DNA of 64,000 bases, taken from contig JABHOV010000059.1 of assembly GCA_018695135.1 (NCBI GenBank), positions 12,133-76,132 of the forward strand. Direction: 5' to 3'. The notes below the pieces were generated by a model. The model saw nothing but the letters and a program-made list of their open reading frames with translations. It made no database searches and was not told the DNA's origin. The position numbers and the translations under genes are program-made. Positions 5,911 through 58,682 of this stretch are shown piece by piece. This DNA is from Candidatus Melainabacteria bacterium (GTDB lineage: Bacteria; Cyanobacteriota; Vampirovibrionia; LMEP-6097). Position 1 is the first letter of the stretch. The number at the start of each line of letters is the position of its first letter.

Positions 5911-6032
5911 CCACCCACGTTGAGCCTTGCACTTCTTAACAGATAATTGCACTTTGATATACAGACTCCACCTTGACTTTGTCTGCGGGCATGCAATTAT
6001 CTGTTAAGAAGTGCAAGGCTCAACGTGGGTGG
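5911..6032. repeat. 122-bp perfect palindromic element, 41-bp arms with termini CCACCCACGTTGAGCCTT / AAGGCTCAACGTGGGTGG (family 4, copy A)
   Basis: Arms 5911-5951 and 5992-6032 are exact reverse complements. Confidence 0.9.
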
Positions 6033-9920: not shown

Positions 9921-10808
9921 ATGCAGCTTCAGGATCTCAATTTATCAGAGCTTACGAAAGTAGCGATTCACAAAAGTGTGTCAGAAGAACTTATTTTTGA
10001 TGCCAATGTTTCTGTAGCTTTGTTTCAATTAGGCGAGCCGCCAATGACCTATTATCATCTGCATGGCGCAGAGAATTATCATCCTGCTAGTTTAATTAAA
10101 TTATTTCAAGCTTACTTGGCTAAATACAAAATCCAAAGCAATGTTGTAGATTTTGCCAGAGAAAAAATAGCCGAAACAGATTCTTTTGCATCATCTAATC
10201 ATATGGAGGATGTTTACCAGGCAATCGAGGCAAGTCTCAAAGACTCTGATAATGATGCTTTGAGTTATTTAGTGGACTACAATAGTGGTGTTTGTTCAGG
10301 TCCCCGGCTTGACGAAGAGGATTTTGCTATTTTTAAAGAAGCGCGCGGCGAGCTTAGTGAGTTTTTTCACGGACGAGGTTATAGCAAGAGCCTCAATATT
10401 CCAGGCAAGTGTTTTAGTTTTGCACCTTACGGTAGAGAGACTCAATTGAGCTTGGAGACAGGCGGGCTTGGAACTAATAGCATCAGTGTTCAAGATGTTG
10501 TACAAATTATGTACGCAATCAAAGTTGATTTCCCTGAATTATTAGAATCATTGAGGCGAGATATTGATGACACGGAAGATGAGCAAGTGCAGTTTATTGC
10601 AACTGGTTTGCGCTGCTACAGTGATCAAATTGAGGCTTACTATTCCAAGGCAGGTTGGACTTCGAGGGTTAGGCATGACGTGGCTTATATCAAGGTTAGA
10701 ACAGGCGAAGAATATATTTTGGCAATCATGACTAAGAATTTAAGTGAGTGTACTGATTTGATTCCCGAGATTGCAGAGTGGGTTATAGGATCTTTGTTTA
10801 AAGATTAA
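9921..10808 (+). CDS. Serine hydrolase, class A beta-lactamase-like
   Basis: SLIK (SxxK), SDN and KAGW(KTG-like) elements in expected order. Confidence 0.5.
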   Translation: MQLQDLNLSELTKVAIHKSVSEELIFDANVSVALFQLGEPPMTYYHLHGAENYHPASLIKLFQAYLAKYKIQSNVVDFAREKIAETDSFASSNHMEDVYQAIEASLKDSDNDALSYLVDYNSGVCSGPRLDEEDFAIFKEARGELSEFFHGRGYSKSLNIPGKCFSFAPYGRETQLSLETGGLGTNSISVQDVVQIMYAIKVDFPELLESLRRDIDDTEDEQVQFIATGLRCYSDQIEAYYSKAGWTSRVRHDVAYIKVRTGEEYILAIMTKNLSECTDLIPEIAEWVIGSLFKD

Positions 10809-10811
10809 CTG

Positions 10812-10860
10812 CCTTAAGTGAGTGCAAAGCTCTCTCGTGAGCTTTGCGCTCACTTAAGAC
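10812..10860. terminator. Bidirectional hairpin between convergent genes (CTTAAGTGAGTGCAAAGCTC..GAGCTTTGCGCTCACTTAAG)
   Basis: 20-bp inverted repeat read in sequence; no strong U-run. Confidence 0.5.
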
Positions 10861-10862
10861 GG

Positions 10863-11285
10863 TTAATCTTTGCCATCAATACTAAATTTGCCAGCACCAT
10901 GAGTTAGCAAGACGGAGAGCATTATAAAGTAGTAAAAAGGAATTTCAAAACCGTTAGCACTTGCAGCAAAACCGTTTTTAAAATGCACAACAAAGATTGC
11001 AACGAGCATTGTTACCATTAGTGGTAGCGCAAAGAATCTGGTTTTGAGGCCAAGCACTAAGGCAATTACACCAAGAGATTCTGCTCCTGTTGCCATAACC
11101 GCATTGAGATATGGAAATGGTAAGTGAAGACTATGTTCAAACCACATAACGATGTCGTTGAAATGAGTTAGTTTCTTGAGTGCAGGTTCATAAAAGCCAT
11201 AAGCTAGTGTGAAACGCAAAATCAATAAAGAGAGATCAGCAAAAGAGCTAGTAATTCTATTATATAAGGCTATTAAACTGTTCAT
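10863..11285 (-). CDS. DoxX family membrane protein
   Basis: Four TM helices, DoxX-like length and motif layout. Confidence 0.65.
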   Translation of the reverse strand: MNSLIALYNRITSSFADLSLLILRFTLAYGFYEPALKKLTHFNDIVMWFEHSLHLPFPYLNAVMATGAESLGVIALVLGLKTRFFALPLMVTMLVAIFVVHFKNGFAASANGFEIPFYYFIMLSVLLTHGAGKFSIDGKD

Positions 11286-11439: not shown

Positions 11440-11560
11440 AACCGGTTTTTATTAGAGATCCTGCAAAACTTTGTTTTGCTAGTGATGTCGACACAAAAAA
11501 GTTTGGAACGGTGCGAAGCGCTAGTTCCTGGAGTGAAGAGGATGGGCTTTTTTACAATAA
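11440..11560. repeat. Family 1 structured repeat, intergenic copy (core CCTGCAAAAC-TTT-GTTTTGCTAGTGATGTCGACA..GGAACGGTGCGAAGCGCTAGTTCC)
   Basis: Shares a ~70-nt core with copies at 14545-14665 and 58255-58370. Confidence 0.85.
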
Positions 11561-11899
11561 GTCTAATGAAATGGAGCAAGGCTTTGCCGTCTCCTCGTTT
11601 GAACCGTATTAAAATAAATAAATCCAGTCAAAAACAATATCAATATGTTTTAGGAGAATTTATTTTGCTGAAGACAAAGTATCAGGTTTGGACAAAAGCG
11701 TTAGACAAAAAGATTGAAAAGCCCAAAGAGATTTTTGAAGTTAAGATCTTAGATTAGCTTTATTTAATTTAAATGAGGTAGATGTTTTGCTTTAGTACAA
11801 GGCGCAAGTCGCCTGAAGAACCGGAGTTATGTGAGCCCATAATGAGGATTCTGAAGACGGCGAAGTAACGCAGTAATAAAGTGAAACGGCACCGGAATT

Positions 11900-13769: not shown

Positions 13770-14987
13770 ATGGATAGAAATGGACAAAGATTGGACAATG
13801 TCATCAGCCTTGATCTAAAGCTACAAGGTTTGATTAGTTCTAAATTAAAAAACATTGATCAGTTTAATCTAACTTGGTCAGAATTCGAGTTGAAGGAATC
13901 ACAAGAGTTTTTGCGTGAACTTAAAGAGCTTTCTACTATTCAGAGTATTGGTTCTTCTACGAGAATTGAGGGTTCTAAATTACAAGATGATGAAATTAAA
14001 ACCTTGATCGATAATTTAGATATTAATAAGCTTAAGTCGCGTGATGAAGAGGAAGTGAGCGGCTATTATGAAGCTCTTGATTTGATCTACGAAAATCATG
14101 AGAATTTATTTTTGAGTGAATCATATATAAAGCAATTGCATGCAATTTCGCTTAAGTATAGTTCAAAGGATACTCGCCACCGAGGAGATTATAAATCATT
14201 GTCTAATAAAGTGGTTGCTCAGTATCCTGATGGAAGTTCCAGGGTCGTTTTTGATACTACTGAGCCATACCTAGTGGCAAAAGAGATGACTGATTTGATT
14301 GATTGGTCTAATGAAAGACTTTCATATTCTGGGATTCATTCCTTGATGGTGATAGCTGTTTTTGTTTATGAGTTTCTTTCTATTCACCCTTTTCAAGATG
14401 GCAATGGCCGTTTGTCTCGCTTACTGACCAACTTGTTAATGATGAAGTCAGGTTATAAGTTTGTTCAATATATTTCTTTTGAGCATGTGATTGAACAAAG
14501 AAAAAAAGAATACTATCAAAATCTAATGGAGGCTCAGTCTCAGCGGTTTACGAGACACCCTGCAAAACATGGTTTTGCTAGTGATGTCGACATAAATAAG
14601 GTCGGAACTGTGCGAAGCGCCAGTTCCGCTAATGAAGAGGCGGAGGGCTTTCATGTGAACTGTGCCGCAAGGGAAGATCTTGGCATGTGGATGGTATATT
14701 TCTTAGATTGTGTTGAAAACCTAATCTCAAAACTTAAAACTAAGTTGCACACAAATGATGATCATTGTTTAGATGATTCTGGAGTAAATTTAAGTTCAAC
14801 TCAGAAACAAATCTACACTTTGATCAGCACGAATAAGTCTAGTAAAGTTGAGGATCTGATGAAAGTTTTTCCTGAGATAACGAGACCGACTATTAAATAT
14901 AGTTTGTCGAGGCTTGTTGAGCTTGGTTTAATCAGTCGCCATGGAAGAGGGCGAGGGACTTGGTACCAGACCGCTAAAGCTTACTAA
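13770..14987 (+). CDS. Fic family protein (AMPylase/Doc-like) with N-terminal inhibitory motif STRIEG and C-terminal winged HTH; carries in-frame family-1 repeat
   Basis: HPFQDGNGRLSRLL Fic motif; (S/T)xxxE(G/N) motif near the N-terminus. Confidence 0.85.
   Translation: MDRNGQRLDNVISLDLKLQGLISSKLKNIDQFNLTWSEFELKESQEFLRELKELSTIQSIGSSTRIEGSKLQDDEIKTLIDNLDINKLKSRDEEEVSGYYEALDLIYENHENLFLSESYIKQLHAISLKYSSKDTRHRGDYKSLSNKVVAQYPDGSSRVVFDTTEPYLVAKEMTDLIDWSNERLSYSGIHSLMVIAVFVYEFLSIHPFQDGNGRLSRLLTNLLMMKSGYKFVQYISFEHVIEQRKKEYYQNLMEAQSQRFTRHPAKHGFASDVDINKVGTVRSASSANEEAEGFHVNCAAREDLGMWMVYFLDCVENLISKLKTKLHTNDDHCLDDSGVNLSSTQKQIYTLISTNKSSKVEDLMKVFPEITRPTIKYSLSRLVELGLISRHGRGRGTWYQTAKAY
14545..14665. repeat. 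Family 1 structured repeat inserted in frame in the Fic ORF (encodes ..RHPAKHGFASDVDINKVGTVRSASSANEEAEGF..)
   Basis: Nucleotide identity to copies at 11460-11528 and 58266-58345. Confidence 0.85.
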
Positions 14988-16284: not shown

Positions 16285-16307
16285 TGTGCTGTTTTAATTA
16301 TACCCAT

Positions 16308-16397
16308 TGGGGTCGTATCCTGACATTGGACATTTCTACGGGTTAGGTATTATCACCTTGTTATTAGTTCAAAATGTCCAATGTCAGGATACGACCC
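16308..16397. repeat. Family 2 palindromic element: 26-bp arms GGGTCGTATCCTGACATTGGACATTT / reverse complement around a ~36-nt unique loop
   Basis: Exact inverted repeat; same arms at 47237-47325 and 54184-54276. Confidence 0.9.
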
Positions 16398-16451
16398 TGA
16401 TGGGTCATATGGACTATCTAGATATCCCAGTTAAAGCCGATTAACTATTAT

Positions 16452-31162: not shown

Positions 31163-31352
31163 CCACCCACGTTGAGCCTTCAGATAAGATCCCACCCGCT
31201 GCGTGACATACGCCACTTTTAAGATAAATCGTCTACACAATGGTATTTCTCTGTTGAGTCAGTTTTAGATATCATTTATCTTAAAAGTGGCGTATGTCAC
31301 GCAGCGGGTGGGATCTTATCTCAAAAAGTGGTAAAGGTTGAGACGTGGGTGG
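31163..31352. repeat. Family 4 palindromic element, copy B (~190 bp): termini CCACCCACGTTGAGCCTT / AAGGTTGAGACGTGGGTGG, 49-bp inner inverted repeat
   Basis: Read in sequence; shares 18-bp termini with 5911-6032. Confidence 0.85.
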
Positions 31353-45661: not shown

Positions 45662-47236
45662 ATGTCTAATTTTCGTTATCGCAGCATACAAATACTCATT
45701 GCTTTAGCATTTCTTGCTATCTTGGGACGTTTATTTCAATTTCAAATTCTTAATGGGCAAAAATATTCTGCTTACATTAAGCGCTATGGACAGACCTACA
45801 AAATTAGTCCTGCAAGAGCAGAGATTGTTGATCGTAACGACAAAGTACTTGCTTTGGATTTGATGAAATATACACTTGAATATAATCCCGTGACTACTAG
45901 TGAGGATAGAGGCATGCTTGCTTTCAAACTAGAGCAAATGATTGATTTGAAAGATCCAGAAGATCTCAATGCTAGTTATAGTAAGACTCTTGCGCATGGT
46001 TTGAGTCGCGAACAGGCAAACAAAATTAGGAAGCTTGATTCCAAATTATTATACTTGCGTCAAGTTAGGCGCAGATTTTATCCACAAGATGAGCTGGCTT
46101 CTCATGTGCTTGGCTATGTTGATCTTTATGGACAAGCAAGGCAAGGTATTGAAGCTGACTATCAAAAGAGATTAGAAGAAGACTCAGAGAACAAGCTTAG
46201 ATTGAGCTTGGATTCTCGCTTGCAAGTTTTTGCCGAAACAGAATTAAAGAAGCGAATTGCTGAAACGAAGGCGGCAAGAGGGACTGTTTTGTTAATGGAA
46301 GTTGCTACTGGACAAATGATGGCAATGGCTACTAGCCCAGGATTCAATCCTAATAACTATTTTGATTTTAGTTTGTCACAAATTAAAAACTGGCCTTTGG
46401 TTGATGTCTATCAACCGGGTTCTATTTTTAAGATAGTGACAGTGGCATCTGCCCTAGAGTCTGGGACTATAGATTTGAGTCATCGTTTTGTAGATGAAGG
46501 CTTTTTGGAGATTGATAAATGGAAAATCAAAAATCATGAATACAAACTAGGTAAGACTGAGGCTGAGGAATTGAATCTGCAAAACTTGTTTGAACGATCA
46601 AGTAATACTTTTGCTGCACATCTGGCACTAGCAATGGGTCCTAAGGTTTTTCATGATCAGATTAGCAAGTTTGGCTTTGGGCAAAAAACGGGGATCGAAT
46701 TAAGTGGGGAGTCCAAGGGTATTTTGCTTAAGCACAAAAAATGGCGTAAGTCCGATACTGCAACTACAGGCATGGGTCATGGTGCCATTTCTGTTACTCC
46801 GTTACAGTTGCTGGCAGCAGCTAATGTCATTGCCAATGACGGTCATTGGGCTAGACCGACTTTGTTTCTTGATTCTAAACAGCCGTTGGCTGAAGAGCTT
46901 GAACCAATTATCAGTGCTGAGCATGCTTATAGTATTAGAAATCTTTTGGCAAGAGCCATTGATCACAATTTGAAATTCAAATCTAGCGTGGCTGGACGTG
47001 TTGATAATTTGACGATAGCTGGTAAAACTGGCACAGCAGAGAAAATCAAAGCAGGTGGAGGCTACTCCAAAAAAGAAACAGTCGCTTCTTTCTTAGGTTT
47101 CTTCCCGGCTTATAATCCAAAATATATCGCCTTAGTTGTAATTGATGATCCCAAGACTGATGGTCGTTGGGGTGATACTGTGGCTGGACCTTTGTTTAAC
47201 AAGATTGCTGCTTACACTAGAGACTTGTATTTATAA
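45662..47236 (+). CDS. Penicillin-binding protein, FtsI/PBP2-type transpeptidase
   Basis: N-terminal TM anchor, SIFK (SxxK), KTGTAE. Confidence 0.85.
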   Translation: MSNFRYRSIQILIALAFLAILGRLFQFQILNGQKYSAYIKRYGQTYKISPARAEIVDRNDKVLALDLMKYTLEYNPVTTSEDRGMLAFKLEQMIDLKDPEDLNASYSKTLAHGLSREQANKIRKLDSKLLYLRQVRRRFYPQDELASHVLGYVDLYGQARQGIEADYQKRLEEDSENKLRLSLDSRLQVFAETELKKRIAETKAARGTVLLMEVATGQMMAMATSPGFNPNNYFDFSLSQIKNWPLVDVYQPGSIFKIVTVASALESGTIDLSHRFVDEGFLEIDKWKIKNHEYKLGKTEAEELNLQNLFERSSNTFAAHLALAMGPKVFHDQISKFGFGQKTGIELSGESKGILLKHKKWRKSDTATTGMGHGAISVTPLQLLAAANVIANDGHWARPTLFLDSKQPLAEELEPIISAEHAYSIRNLLARAIDHNLKFKSSVAGRVDNLTIAGKTGTAEKIKAGGGYSKKETVASFLGFFPAYNPKYIALVVIDDPKTDGRWGDTVAGPLFNKIAAYTRDLYL

Positions 47237-47325
47237 GGGTCGTATCCTGTCATCTGACATTTCAATGTATTACAAACGATCTTAATTAGTGATACACTGA
47301 AATGTCAGATGACAGGATACGACCC
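47237..47325. repeat. Family 2 palindromic element, variant arms GGGTCGTATCCTGTCATCTGACATTT with three compensatory changes in the partner arm
   Basis: Both arms read in sequence. Confidence 0.9.
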
Positions 47326-47871
47326 TGTTTGGCGCAGGAAATCTTCATGTGCATTTTTATTGGTGTAGTTGGTAACGCGCAAATAAGCTGACCAAGGTAT
47401 TTGATTTTCGCTTGCAACTTTGGCTATACCGTAGAGCTCCATGTTTTCTATAATTGCGTCTGTTTGATAATGTTTAATAATTTGTTTGGAGATAGTCTCG
47501 TCTTGAGTGATTTCAAGACTTGAGAGGCATAAAATATTCTTTGAATCTGGATGACTGGCGTGAAGAATAGGATAAATATCTTTGATAGTGTAGCTAAGTC
47601 CTTGAACTGATCCGAGATTTAAAAGAGCTGCAGCACTAACTATGATTTGCTCGCCAATCTTGATATTTTGGCTATAGGCACCGGCTGTGCCAGTAAAGAT
47701 GATTTCGGAGATATCGTTTCTTGATTGAAGTAGTTTAGAGAGATTGACAGCTGCTTCAAGATAGCCAATGCCAAGTACCTCTAAAATATGGGTTTTACTG
47801 GTTAAATAGGGCAAATCCGCTGGATTCTCTGCTAGTTCGTTTTTGCAGGCTGCGCAAATAAGGCTTGTCAT
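47305..47871 (-). CDS. PNP/MTAN-family nucleosidase, possible futalosine hydrolase MqnB
   Basis: Short 188-aa MTAN-like layout (..IIFTGTAGAY..). Confidence 0.55.
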   Translation of the reverse strand: MTSLICAACKNELAENPADLPYLTSKTHILEVLGIGYLEAAVNLSKLLQSRNDISEIIFTGTAGAYSQNIKIGEQIIVSAAALLNLGSVQGLSYTIKDIYPILHASHPDSKNILCLSSLEITQDETISKQIIKHYQTDAIIENMELYGIAKVASENQIPWSAYLRVTNYTNKNAHEDFLRQTGSYPVI

Positions 47872-49189: not shown

Positions 49190-50052
49190 CCTACTTGATT
49201 GAAGCTGATGACTTGGTTGCAACAGTGCCTGGGACTTTGACATTGAAAGATTTGGATAGTGATTTAATTCAACAGTGTTTAATTTCTACTTTGCTTGCTC
49301 CAGCTCATTATACAATTGCACAAATCTTGGCAGAGGATTGGGGACATGACGCTAGGCAGGTTCTGGGACTTGGTTTGAAACATGCCAGTGGCTTGCATAC
49401 CAAAACCGGCGGCAAGGTAATCAAAAATGTATCTGGTTATGATTTGAGTAAAATATATTTAGGTAGTTGCGAATCCTTGGCAAAGATTGAAACAGCAAGT
49501 TTGCGTTTGGAGAAACTACCATTATTGATTTGTGAATTGAGCTTGAAGCTTGAACGAGAACTTGATCTTGACTTGATTGTTTTTTTGCACAAAATAGCGA
49601 CGATGGATTTTGATGAGAGTTTTGATGTGGAATTAAATATGCTCGGTGAGATCAAGTTGAGTTTTACTGCCACAAGTAAAGAACTCATGGCTTTGAAACA
49701 AGCTCGCTTGGCTAGAAGGCTAGAAGGTTTTTGGGATCATGAACTTAGTTTGGATTTTGTGGTACAGCCTTATAAAAAACAATACCCCAGTACTGATTTA
49801 AGGATTGAAATTCATGGAGTTTTGACGACTTTGCTCAATACCGCAAAGTCATTAGGGCAGCCTTGTCAGATCTACCCCAAGAGAGGCTATCTACTGTTAG
49901 AGTCTTCTGTCCAGAATTTAAAAAAGCTAGATGATTGTTACTACTATGTTTATCCCAAGACCGATGAAAACAAAAAACTAGAAACCCAGTTGAACGATAC
50001 TGATAACGCAGAGTTGGATTTATTCAAACAACTCCAAAAGGATTTTGCTTAA
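49186..50052 (+). CDS. GlcE-like FAD-binding subunit lacking the N-terminal part of the FAD_binding_4 domain
   Basis: KTGGKVIKNVSGYDLSKIYLGS motif of glycolate oxidase GlcE; starts where GlcE homologs are ~90 aa in. Confidence 0.55.
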   Translation: MTYLIEADDLVATVPGTLTLKDLDSDLIQQCLISTLLAPAHYTIAQILAEDWGHDARQVLGLGLKHASGLHTKTGGKVIKNVSGYDLSKIYLGSCESLAKIETASLRLEKLPLLICELSLKLERELDLDLIVFLHKIATMDFDESFDVELNMLGEIKLSFTATSKELMALKQARLARRLEGFWDHELSLDFVVQPYKKQYPSTDLRIEIHGVLTTLLNTAKSLGQPCQIYPKRGYLLLESSVQNLKKLDDCYYYVYPKTDENKKLETQLNDTDNAELDLFKQLQKDFA

Positions 50053-51344
50053 TGGACGCAGCGACGATTAATGAAACGATTAAGGCTTGTATTCATTGCG
50101 GTATCTGCCTGCCAGCCTGCCCGACTTATCAGGTAACAGGTAATGAAGGACATTCGCCGCGTGGAAGATTGTACTTAATTAATGATCTCTTGACTAATGA
50201 GACTGGAGCCAGGGAAGATGTCGTTGAGTATTTGGATGGCTGCCTTGAATGCTCCGCCTGTGAAACGGTCTGTCCATCAGGTGTTGACTATGTCAATATT
50301 CTTGAATATGCTCGCCATGAATTGGGTCTGAGCAATTACACTAAGGGCTTTATGGCTGCTGTTAGACGCCTGGTGTTCCAGTATTTATTGCCGAATAGAG
50401 TCTTGTTGAATCTGGCAAGAGTGATGGGGCGTTTTTTGCCTTTGCGGTTATTCAATAAGCTAGCGCCGGGTTTTGATTTTGAATACAAAAAAATCAAGAC
50501 GGATTATATTTATAAATCTCAAAGTCGGACTTCGCGGACAGTCTCCATGCCACTGGGTTGTGTAATGGATACGATTTATAATGATGTGCATTGGGATAGT
50601 ATTCAAGTACTCAACGCTTTTGGTTATGATGTCTATATACCTGAAACTCAGTGCTGCGGTGCTCTTGCTTATCATAGTGGTGAAAACAAACTTGGTGAAA
50701 AACAGCTTGAGGAAACCACGTCGATACTAGCTAAGCATCAGTATCCAGTAGTAATGAACTCAGCGGGTTGTGGGGCTTTTATTAAAAATCATTCTGATTT
50801 AGAATCGATGGATTTAATTGAGGCTTTGAAACAAGCACCGTCATTGCGAGGAGCAGACGCGGCGCGGCAATCTAACGCAGGGGACTGGATTGCCACGCAC
50901 TCTTTGAGTGCTCGCAATGATGAAATAATTTATGCCGTTTACCACCCTGCCTGTCATCTCAATCATAAGCAAGGAGTCTCGCAAGACTATGTTGAATTGT
51001 TGAAAAGAATCCCAAGTTTGGAATTAATACCACTACATGAAGCAGACCTTTGTTGCGGCTCGGCTGGATTTTATAATTTAATTCAAAGCAAGCTTGCTGG
51101 TGAGATTGGTAAACGTAAGGCAGAGAATATTACATCGTCATTGCGAGCGTTAGCGAAGCAATCTAATGCAAGATCCAAGGGCGCGGCAATTAAATTCTCT
51201 GTATTAGATTGCTTCGCTAACGCTCGCAATGACGTGATTGTACTTACTGCAAATCCCGGTTGCATGTCTCAAATCCAAGCTCACTTGGGTGATGAATATC
51301 AAGTTATGCATCCTATTAGTTTGATTAAGCAATACTTGAATTAG
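50052..51344 (+). CDS. glcF: Glycolate oxidase iron-sulfur subunit GlcF-like with two in-frame family-3 repeat insertions
   Basis: Two CxxCxxCxxxCP ferredoxin motifs, two CCG domains. Confidence 0.8.
   Translation: MDAATINETIKACIHCGICLPACPTYQVTGNEGHSPRGRLYLINDLLTNETGAREDVVEYLDGCLECSACETVCPSGVDYVNILEYARHELGLSNYTKGFMAAVRRLVFQYLLPNRVLLNLARVMGRFLPLRLFNKLAPGFDFEYKKIKTDYIYKSQSRTSRTVSMPLGCVMDTIYNDVHWDSIQVLNAFGYDVYIPETQCCGALAYHSGENKLGEKQLEETTSILAKHQYPVVMNSAGCGAFIKNHSDLESMDLIEALKQAPSLRGADAARQSNAGDWIATHSLSARNDEIIYAVYHPACHLNHKQGVSQDYVELLKRIPSLELIPLHEADLCCGSAGFYNLIQSKLAGEIGKRKAENITSSLRALAKQSNARSKGAAIKFSVLDCFANARNDVIVLTANPGCMSQIQAHLGDEYQVMHPISLIKQYLN
50839..50922. repeat. Family 3 palindromic repeat, copy inside GlcF (CGTCATTGCGAG..CTCGCAATGATG)
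   Basis: Arms CATTGCGAG/CTCGCAATG with nested GGCAATC/GATTGCC. Confidence 0.8.
51136..51234. repeat. Family 3 palindromic repeat, full copy: 32-bp perfect arms CGTCATTGCGAGCGTTAGCGAAGCAATCTAAT / ATTAGATTGCTTCGCTAACGCTCGCAATGACG
   Basis: Read in sequence; in frame in GlcF. Confidence 0.9.
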
Positions 51345-54160: not shown

Positions 54161-54183
54161 AGTGAAAAAGATTGTATCACATA

Positions 54184-54276
54184 GGGTCGTATCCTGACAT
54201 TGGACATTTGCTACACTATATATTATCCGCTGGGCAAAGTTATTTAACTAAAATGTCCAATGTCAGGATACGACCC
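54184..54276. repeat. Family 2 palindromic element, third copy
   Basis: Same 26-bp arms as 16308-16397. Confidence 0.9.
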
Positions 54277-54280
54277 TACT

Positions 54281-57620: not shown

Positions 57621-57974
57621 ATGAGACACCAAATAAAGAAAAATAGAATGAATAGACCTGCCGATCAGCGTAAAGCTGCTCTAAGGGCTCTTGCAACATG
57701 TTTACTTCGTGAAAAACAAATCAACACTACTATGGCTAACGCCAAAGCAGTTGCTCCTGAAATCGATAGATTGATTGGACTTGCTGTTCGTGGTGATCTT
57801 CACGCTCGTCGCCAAGTTGCTTCTTTTATTTATGATAAAGATGTAGTCAAAGATTTATTTGCCAATATTGCTGAAAGATATAAAGAACGTAAGTCTGGTG
57901 GATTTACACGTATTGTCAAAGATGGTTTCCGTCGTGGTGATAATGCGCCTAAAGCAATCATTCAACTAGTCTAA
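57621..57974 (+). CDS. rplQ: 50S ribosomal protein L17
   Basis: MRHQIKKNRMNRPADQRKAALRAL. Confidence 0.95.
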   Translation: MRHQIKKNRMNRPADQRKAALRALATCLLREKQINTTMANAKAVAPEIDRLIGLAVRGDLHARRQVASFIYDKDVVKDLFANIAERYKERKSGGFTRIVKDGFRRGDNAPKAIIQLV

Positions 57975-58102
57975 AACTTGCTCTGAGAACTCGATAACTT
58001 CGTTACGCTCGCCCTAATAAGTCATCATTGACGGCTCAGTCAACTCAGCCTTATTAGAACTTCGCAAGCCTCGTTCTCGAGACCTCATAGCAAGTTTGGT
58101 AT
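57975..58102. repeat. Family 5 repeat embedded in a nested palindrome (outer AAACTTGCT..AGCAAGTTT, inner CTAATAAG..CTTATTAG) filling the rplQ-GNAT intergenic region
   Basis: Core ATTGACGGCTCAGTCAACTC at 58027-58046. Confidence 0.65.
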
Positions 58103-58109
58103 TCGGGTA

Positions 58110-58682
58110 ATGAAAGTACGAAAACTAACAACAGATTACTTCAACCAAGTACATGATCTGATCAAGTTTTATTCTGAGCGTCGTTTGATGTTGCCACTTA
58201 GTCTTGATGAGCTTTATCATAGAGCGCAGGCTTATCGAATTATTGTAGGGGACAGCGATAGACATCCTGCAAAACAAGGTTTTGCTAGTGATGTCGCCAC
58301 AAAAGAGGTCGGAATCATGCGGAGCATGTGTTCCGCTAAGGGAAATGAGTTAGACCTTGGCAAGAAGCCTATGGGGACAGTCCTTGCTTGCGCTCATCTC
58401 GATATTTTTACACCACAACTCGCTGAAATCAAAAGCCTTGCTGTTATTGAAACGGAGCATGGTAAAGGCTATGGTAAGACTTTAGTCATGGATTGTGAGC
58501 AAGATGCCAAGGCTATTGGTATCAAGAAGCTTTTTGTCTTAACTTACCAACAGGATTTTTTTACTAAGCTCGGTTACCAGGTTGTTGATCGTAATACTTT
58601 GCCTGAGAAGGTCTATAAAGAATGCATCAAATGTAGCTATTTCGATGATTGTAATGAAATTGCGATGGTTAAGAGCCTCTAG
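58110..58682 (+). CDS. GNAT family N-acetyltransferase with in-frame family-1 repeat
   Basis: Acetyl-CoA binding ..EHGKGYGKTLV.. motif A. Confidence 0.75.
   Translation: MKVRKLTTDYFNQVHDLIKFYSERRLMLPLSLDELYHRAQAYRIIVGDSDRHPAKQGFASDVATKEVGIMRSMCSAKGNELDLGKKPMGTVLACAHLDIFTPQLAEIKSLAVIETEHGKGYGKTLVMDCEQDAKAIGIKKLFVLTYQQDFFTKLGYQVVDRNTLPEKVYKECIKCSYFDDCNEIAMVKSL
58255..58370. repeat. Family 1 structured repeat inserted in frame in GNAT ORF (encodes ..DRHPAKQGFASDVATKEVGIMRSMCSAKGNELDLGKKPMG..)
   Basis: Core CCTGCAAAAC-AAG-GTTTTGCTAGTGATGTCGCCACAAAAGAGGTCGGAATCATGCGGAGCATGTGTTCC. Confidence 0.85.

Follow-up and report, generated by a model that had tools for sequence, protein, structure and literature searches.

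A perfect palindrome with mirrored arm variants at the convergent ends of a PBP and a nucleosidase gene, a probable copy of a dispersed mobile repeat in Melainabacteria

The 64-kb window, that is, the whole stretch of Melainabacteria DNA analysed here, contains between two convergent genes a palindrome, designated w47, which extends from position 47237 to 47325. It is built of a left arm (47237-47264, 28 nt), a spacer or loop (47265-47297, 33 nt) and a right arm (47298-47325, 28 nt), and the sequence GGGTCGTATCCTGTCATCTGACATTTCA is read at 47237-47264 on the (+) strand and again at 47298-47325 on the (-) strand with 0 mismatches, the number of such matches expected from shuffled sequences being 0. 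The perfect palindrome described in the original prediction was thus recovered at the same coordinates. The spacer is partly self-pairing, its outer parts (47265-47276 with 47286-47297) pairing imperfectly, and the stem can be extended to 41-nt arms at 93% complementarity; in the extended stem base 47236 (A) also pairs with 47326 (T). The RNA is predicted to fold with a free energy of about -63 kcal/mol whichever strand is read (z between about -13 and -14). By the source names of identical or nearly identical proteins the window was assigned to a Melainabacteria / 'Cyanobacteria bacterium' MAG. Same-species contigs were available from other metagenomes (L109, L117, L119-121, L124, L125), and the w47 sequence was found to be identical across four independent assemblies, L109, L117 and L121 among them.

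The left arm abuts the TAA stop codon (47234-47236, + strand) of a PBP/FtsI-like ORF (45662-47236) with the Pfam domains Transpeptidase and PBP_dimer, and the element starts at the next base, 47237, as had been predicted. The right arm enters the opposite gene. It encodes the 3' end (47305-47325, - strand) of the ORF 47305-47871, whose product terminates in ..QTGSYPVI*. This overlap, claimed in the original prediction to comprise the last seven codons and the stop, is real, the codons lying wholly in the right arm being six (GSYPVI) together with the TGA stop (47305-47307); the seventh codon (T) has just base 47326 of the extension in common with the element. The TGA stop is owed to the variant base 47307, because the arm consensus would give GGA at this position and hence read-through. 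The protein belongs to the nucleosidase superfamily PNP_UDP_1 (Pfam), and its top NCBIfam match, futalosine hydrolase, has a score of 49.8 bits, well under the cut-off of 124.7; therefore the earlier designation of the gene as MqnB-like is kept here only as a loose label. Comparison of the C-termini of orthologues, proposed with the original prediction, showed that the divergence starts exactly at the element boundary. The insertion of w47 may have truncated the C-terminal tail of the nucleosidase, giving it six codons and a stop instead.

The palindrome is one copy of a dispersed family, family 2, whose elements are 88-94 bp long and have no ORF of their own. Three copies are present within the 64-kb window. 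Besides w47 these are w16 (16310-16397), with a short palindromic flank (16302-16405), and w54 (54184-54276), both with consensus arms, each of which contains the consensus 17-mer CCTGACATTGGACATTT (at 16319/16372 in w16 and at 54193/54251 in w54). A scan of metagenome contigs which required just the outer 11 nt of both arms returned the window loci and, in addition, three further ones (L116, L118 and L123); since intact outer arm ends were demanded, three of the six loci are biased to intact copies. Their occurrence in the same metagenomes suggests that these contigs come from the same genome as the window. The family-2 statistics given below rest on these six distinct loci.

The genomic contexts of the copies are diverse. 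Two of the elements lie between divergent genes (w16 between CNNM/CorC and TrbI-like genes, w54 between rpsT and map), w47 lies between convergent ones, and the L116 and L123 copies were found upstream of a glycosyltransferase gene and downstream of a flagellin gene, respectively; the divergent-promoter, convergent and 3' contexts therefore point to no single host role for the family. Equal dinucleotides flank the element at four of the six loci (TA/TA at w54, L116 and L123, and TG/TG at w16), the flanks of w47 and L118 being unmatched. No further copies were found in about 13 kb added beyond the window, and a search of about 330 kb of related sequence in which up to 6 mismatches were allowed gave neither solo nor degenerate arms. 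A 16-base pattern, GGGTCGTATCCTGNCAT, was rejected as too short, having given 108 single chance matches in unrelated taxa in a scan of genome contigs.

Additional features were observed at the ends of some copies. At L120 1826-1846, corresponding to the left end of the w16 copy (window 16302), a polymorphic 21-nt tandem duplication (ACCCATTGGGGTCGTATCCTG) is present, and a repeated ACGACCCTA was found 5-12 nt outside the element end at L118 1803-1825 and at about 2225-2245 of L123. These terminal duplications near intact copies may be slippage products or footprints of excision or insertion. The right arm of w54 (54260-54280) gives the map ORF a spurious upstream ATG in frame (MSGYDPT), and gene callers therefore lengthen map by these residues; the map protein occurs in databases both as 278 aa and as 271 aa. 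The same start artefact was seen at L116, with MSDVRIRPYET.. on the glycosyltransferase. In the two divergent copies a distance of 18 nt separates the hexamer ATGTCA of the arm from a -10-like hexamer of the host flank (16297-16326 and 54171-54200, both on the - strand), which reads TATAAT and TG-n-TACAAT, facing CNNM and rpsT; the -10 upstream of rpsT is kept in relatives that have no element. These arrangements give only a hint of hybrid promoters, promoter-like matches occurring at background frequency.

Within the 26-nt family core (47237-47262 in the left arm) w47 differs from the consensus. It reads CCTGTCATCTGACATTT (17-mers at 47246/47300) where w16 and w54 read CCTGACATTGGACATTT, with exactly three differences per arm, and each variant base of the left arm (47250 T, 47254 C and 47255 T) has its mirror image in the right arm (47312 A, 47308 G and 47307 A). 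The probability of an exact mirrored set by independent mutation was calculated by us as about 1/(C(26,3) x 27) = 1.4e-5. That coincidence or an assembly error in the hairpin explains the mirrored differences has a negligible probability; the small number of copies is the one thing in its favour, and besides this low value the identity of the sequence in the independent assemblies L109, L117 and L121 excludes it in effect.

The comparison of all copies showed that the mirrored changes belong to a series. The 26-nt arms are perfectly complementary at six out of six distinct loci, in four arm states, TTGG (w16, w54 and L123), TCGG (L116), TCTG (L118) and TCTG plus A>T (w47), and these form a nested one-step series in which T>C is common to w47, L116 and L118, G>T is common to w47 and L118, and A>T is private to w47. 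Moreover, the w47 spacer is homologous only to that of L118 (64%, p about 0.005). With both the TCTG state and the spacer ancestry in common with L118, two of the three substitutions of w47 are therefore inherited characters of a sub-family. The compensatory triple substitution of the original prediction thus stands as regards the mirrored, non-random changes, but not as a single event. The exact variant arm was found at the w47 locus only, and its nearest relative, L118, pairs with its own complement; the pairing of the variant with non-complementary partners elsewhere, which the prediction had named as counter-evidence, was absent. Counted by arm pairs, 22 of the 26 positions are invariant and 3 have changed on both sides, 98.9% of the cells being paired, compared to 30-45% with a slid partner.

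The symmetry is, however, not absolute. In the rpsT-map copy of one contig, L110 (ERZ24794639 NODE_13436), one arm reads CCTAACATCGGACATTT and the other arm is of the consensus type. The two transitions are therefore uncompensated, and in the RNA of one strand each would give a G.U pair. The prediction that symmetry is maintained is accordingly borne out at the six loci and is qualified by this copy. Population-level variation, the second comparison proposed at the outset, was seen in L110 and L120, w47 being invariant in L109, L117 and L121. When compared with window 37315-57777, L110 proved to be a mosaic, with 99% identity over 3.9 kb and about 85-87% over 5.4 kb (average 96.5% over 11 kb); either the strain is a recombinant, or two species that occur together have been assembled into a chimera.

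The arms and spacers have diverged to very different extents. Among the six loci the arms show at most 3/26 differences, whereas the spacers, which between the 26-nt cores measure 37 nt in w47 and 36-42 nt in the other five copies, are identical only at random level in 13 of the 15 pairs, the exceptions being w16 with L123 (30/36) and L118 with w47 (64%). The pair w16 and L123 has identical arms (52/52) and a spacer diverged by 17%, a result to which our calculation assigns a probability of about 6e-5 if both evolve at the same rate; the constraint on the arms therefore concerns their sequence and not their pairing alone. For a family that is young and restricted to one species, spacers so close to saturation beside arms that are nearly identical are an extreme case. 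The possibility that the spacers are ancestral intergenic DNA was rejected, as no significant match was found to the spacer/loop of the sister species, to the local flanks or to the rest of the window.

Perfect symmetry at six loci in four different states would also arise if the symmetry were mechanical, that is, if template-switching in replication, or transposition, rebuilt one arm from its partner, and each arm mutation were soon reverted or mirrored. Such templating could be the source of the mirrored changes, and as the explanation of the symmetry it is held by us to be possible, if rather improbable. Quasipalindrome template-switch mutagenesis perfects imperfect inverted repeats, possibly by several bases per event, and is established in E. 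coli (PMC7202029), and a symmetrical REPIN must be restored from an asymmetric intermediate (Bertels and Rainey, PMC3116915). The lack of solo or degenerate arms in the 330 kb of related sequence agrees with this process, the mirrored transversions (G>T and A>T) have no G.U intermediate through which a stem could have passed, and slippage of replication at the hairpins is suggested by the terminal tandem duplications of L120, L118 and L123. Under templating alone, however, the arms would drift at about half the neutral rate, whereas they were found to be near-invariant beside randomised spacers; selection for a specific sequence is therefore required even if templating operates. The two unmirrored changes of L110 likewise indicate that any copying from arm to arm is not immediate, and gradual evolution of lineages fits the nested one-step series equally well.

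The history of the slots was followed in a sister species of about 85% DNA identity (L111-115 and L126-128, from GCA_027618255.1 and GCA_027622095.1) and in more distant relatives (L129-135). The slot between rpsT and map measures <=54 nt and has no element in the sister species (L126-128), in L129-130 and in L131-132; being empty in three related lineages, it shows that the w54 insertion is derived and species-specific. At the junction about 30 nt of sister sequence have been replaced, with no clean interruption or duplication. In a relative of 92% protein identity the sequence of the w16 slot is not that of family 2, all three contigs starting about 25 nt from the expected element.

The PBP/MqnB slot of the sister species (L110-115) is occupied by an unrelated palindrome, the arms of which, ATGGAGACCCCGGGTATCTCCATTTT, enclose a loop of about 49 nt (L110 10551-10659). 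It likewise abuts the PBP stop and encodes the C-terminus of the nucleosidase (..DGDPGYLHF*) and its stop codon, and each of its arms folds on itself around CCCGGG. In L133 (59% protein identity) the nucleosidase gene ends with ..CAA CAA ATG TAG ACCCCGGGTATCTACAT (L133 5444-5471), which belongs to the family of the sister-slot palindrome; this copy carries an internally compensated G>T/C>A change (GTAGA..TCTAC), and the contig stops inside the element. L134 (47% protein identity) has no palindrome, its PBP and nucleosidase genes overlap by 6 nt, and its nucleosidase has a longer tail. The contents of this slot in the relatives therefore give the order no element, then the 'ACCCCGGGTATC' palindrome, then family 2 in the window species. 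Derivation of family 2 in place from the sister-slot palindrome was rejected, the similarity of the arms being no better than chance; w47 would rather have inserted between the two convergent genes, PBP and nucleosidase, or displaced the older unrelated palindrome there. In a scan of viral contigs the family-2 arm had no match, and the sister-slot arm had one chance match with no partner arm.

It is tempting to speculate that the elements are born symmetric through a single-stranded or asymmetric intermediate in which one arm is the template for the other, a mutation in an arm of the source copy being mirrored whenever it next transposes, and that they prefer or displace existing hairpin elements. 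If true, the latter would explain why unrelated palindromes with identical outer boundaries occupy the PBP/MqnB slot in sister species; we consider the whole quite unlikely.

The same occupation of the convergent slot by palindromes of unrelated families, in L133 as well as in the window and sister species, would be understandable if the hairpin were selected by the host, w47 acting in both directions as a 3'-end structure which terminates or stabilises the converging PBP and nucleosidase mRNAs, and its stem being preserved in place by compensatory evolution. The great stability of the hairpin on both strands, the unchanged state of w47 across independent metagenome assemblies and the fact that both uncompensated changes of L110 amount to G.U on one RNA strand are in line with such a role. 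No terminator-like site was found at any of the three window copies, however, and no U-tract is indicated, as neither w47 arm is followed by a T-run. A terminator would also be senseless between the divergent genes at w16 and w54, and the distant relative with overlapping gene ends manages with no palindrome at all. Furthermore, the arm sequence is conserved beyond pairing at unrelated loci, and two of the three changes, being common to L118, are older than the insertion of w47. Rfam gave no match in the window at the gathering thresholds and, below them, only generic miRNA-precursor hairpin models with 19-54 bits against cut-offs of 65-100, and no tRNA lies near w47. Both the palindrome-free relative and the places in which the other copies lie speak against a host RNA role of the w47 hairpin, and there is only a small chance that such a role explains the symmetry.

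The reading that we consider probable is that w47 is a copy of a dispersed, non-coding mobile palindrome of roughly 90 bp, the arm symmetry of which is kept by selection on the propagation of the element. Non-autonomous mobility fits the way in which the elements are built and dispersed, their insertion polymorphism and the unequal conservation of arms and spacers. For propagation the arms would have to match, whether they form a hairpin in single-stranded DNA or offer the transposase two identical ends to bind; by this requirement the arms would be filtered for both symmetry and sequence, and the spacer would drift freely. Only lineages with matching arms would go on making copies, and changes would become fixed as symmetric pairs. 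Accordingly arranged, the states TTGG > TCGG > TCTG > +A>T may represent a stepwise accumulation in element lineages still able to propagate, and the three mirrored differences of w47 would be the mark of a derived sub-lineage within family 2. Single insertions would decay later, as may have happened to the L110 copy with its two uncompensated changes. We infer both the level of the constraint, element propagation, and the type of transposase; the 64-kb window and the flanks fetched, roughly 13 kb, yielded no transposase domain (DDE type or Y1/RAYT), nor any full-length parent element or cognate IS. The original prediction had offered structural selection or templating of one arm from the other as causes of the symmetry. 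The data do not fully separate the two; selection on a mobile element is favoured, and it provides the most economical account of the mirrored variants.

Other palindromes and repeats were observed in the window. A palindrome with 35-nt arms (CGTCATTGCGAGCG..AGCGAAGCAATC type) lies at 51136-51234 inside the Fer4/CCG ORF 50052-51344, which encodes 430 aa as against 409 aa in the sister ortholog and therefore looks like the recipient of an in-frame insertion of the kind made by Rickettsia palindromic elements (RPEs). Related peptides (VIARSEATKQS, RHCEE.. and LDCFA..ND) occur as inserts in the nucleosidase homologs P0013, P0014, P0003 and P0004. Long palindromes of other families were found at 31179-31324, 5911-6032, 10800-10871 and 57974-58097, with arms of 51, 41, 33 and 25 nt; the one at 10800-10871 resembles w47 in overlapping the 3' ends of convergent ORFs, 9921-10808 (+) and 10863-11285 (-). 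A further dispersed repeat, about 85-120 nt long, is present at 11450-11570, 14553-14638 and 58259-58338 of the window and at L111 8321-8441. It contains two small covarying hairpins (GCAAAACnnnGTTTTGC and GGAAC..GTTCC), has no match in Rfam, and its copies lie within long ORFs, namely Fic, an acetyltransferase (190 aa, compared to 150-159 aa in the sister species) and an unannotated ORF.

Several palindrome families thus reshape gene ends in this clade, by donated stops, cut C-terminal tails, false starts and in-frame insertions in enzymes, which is of relevance to the annotation of metagenome-assembled Melainabacteria genomes. Short-read contigs of the relatives were seen to break where palindromic elements sit (at the end of L133 and at the starts of L142, L143 and L144); such repeats therefore appear to fragment Melainabacteria assemblies, and this bears on the reasons for contig breaks. 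The palindromic repeat family described here is previously undescribed in Melainabacteria, the non-photosynthetic Cyanobacteriota. Its nested mirrored variants, together with one unmirrored population variant, form a compact natural dataset that could help to tell selection from templating in hairpin repeats.

Among known repeat systems, integron attC sites and CRISPR were dropped, as the copies lie among housekeeping genes and not among cassettes, their arms pair perfectly and direct-repeat arrays are absent. Quasipalindrome template-switching (PMC7202029) is a mutational process, unlike an element family. REPINs are REP doublets which form hairpins and are mobilised by RAYT transposases (Bertels and Rainey 2011, PMC3116915); they have invariant inverted ends, a less conserved spacer and frequent compensatory changes across the hairpin (PMC3116915). 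Like them, family 2 has conserved inverted ends, a spacer of constrained length and a long predicted hairpin in single-stranded DNA or RNA, its copies are extragenic and dispersed, compensatory changes are common, and singlets are rare or degenerate (PMC3116915). A REP is itself an imperfect palindrome, unlike the single family-2 arm, which lacks an internal palindrome (-0.8 and -1.1 kcal/mol, z about 0); the sister-slot arms ATGGAGACCCCGGGTATCTCCAT, which self-fold (-5.6 kcal/mol, z -2.4), are more REP-like than those of family 2. Also unlike REPINs, four of the six family-2 copies are flanked by two-nucleotide direct repeats, and no RAYT gene was found in the window.

With the RPEs (PMC10969869) w47 shares the addition of codons to a host protein by a palindrome; unlike an RPE, it swaps the extreme C-terminal tail and the stop and inserts nothing within a domain. 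MITEs often fuse to host ORFs (PMC10969869), and family 2 has several of the properties by which bacterial MITEs are recognised, being shorter than about 300 bp and non-coding, with terminal inverted repeats, dispersed copies and insertion polymorphism. The likeness extends to Correia elements and bacterial MITEs (PMC2649163, PMC2229807, PMC10969869) in the size of about 100 bp, the 26-nt terminal inverted repeats and the TA flank at several copies, as well as in the insertion beside or into gene ends, the promoter-like hexamers that the element ends can supply, the long-hairpin transcripts and the presence or absence among close relatives. Correia elements have a conserved core, in contrast to family 2, whose core is at random level in 13/15 pairs, and no sequence relationship between the two was established. 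The mirrored base changes are a known feature of hairpin-forming mobile repeats and do not call for a new kind of system; with two inverted arms of 26-28 nt and a spacer of 33-42 nt, the anatomy of family 2 is MITE-like and its architecture is REPIN-like.
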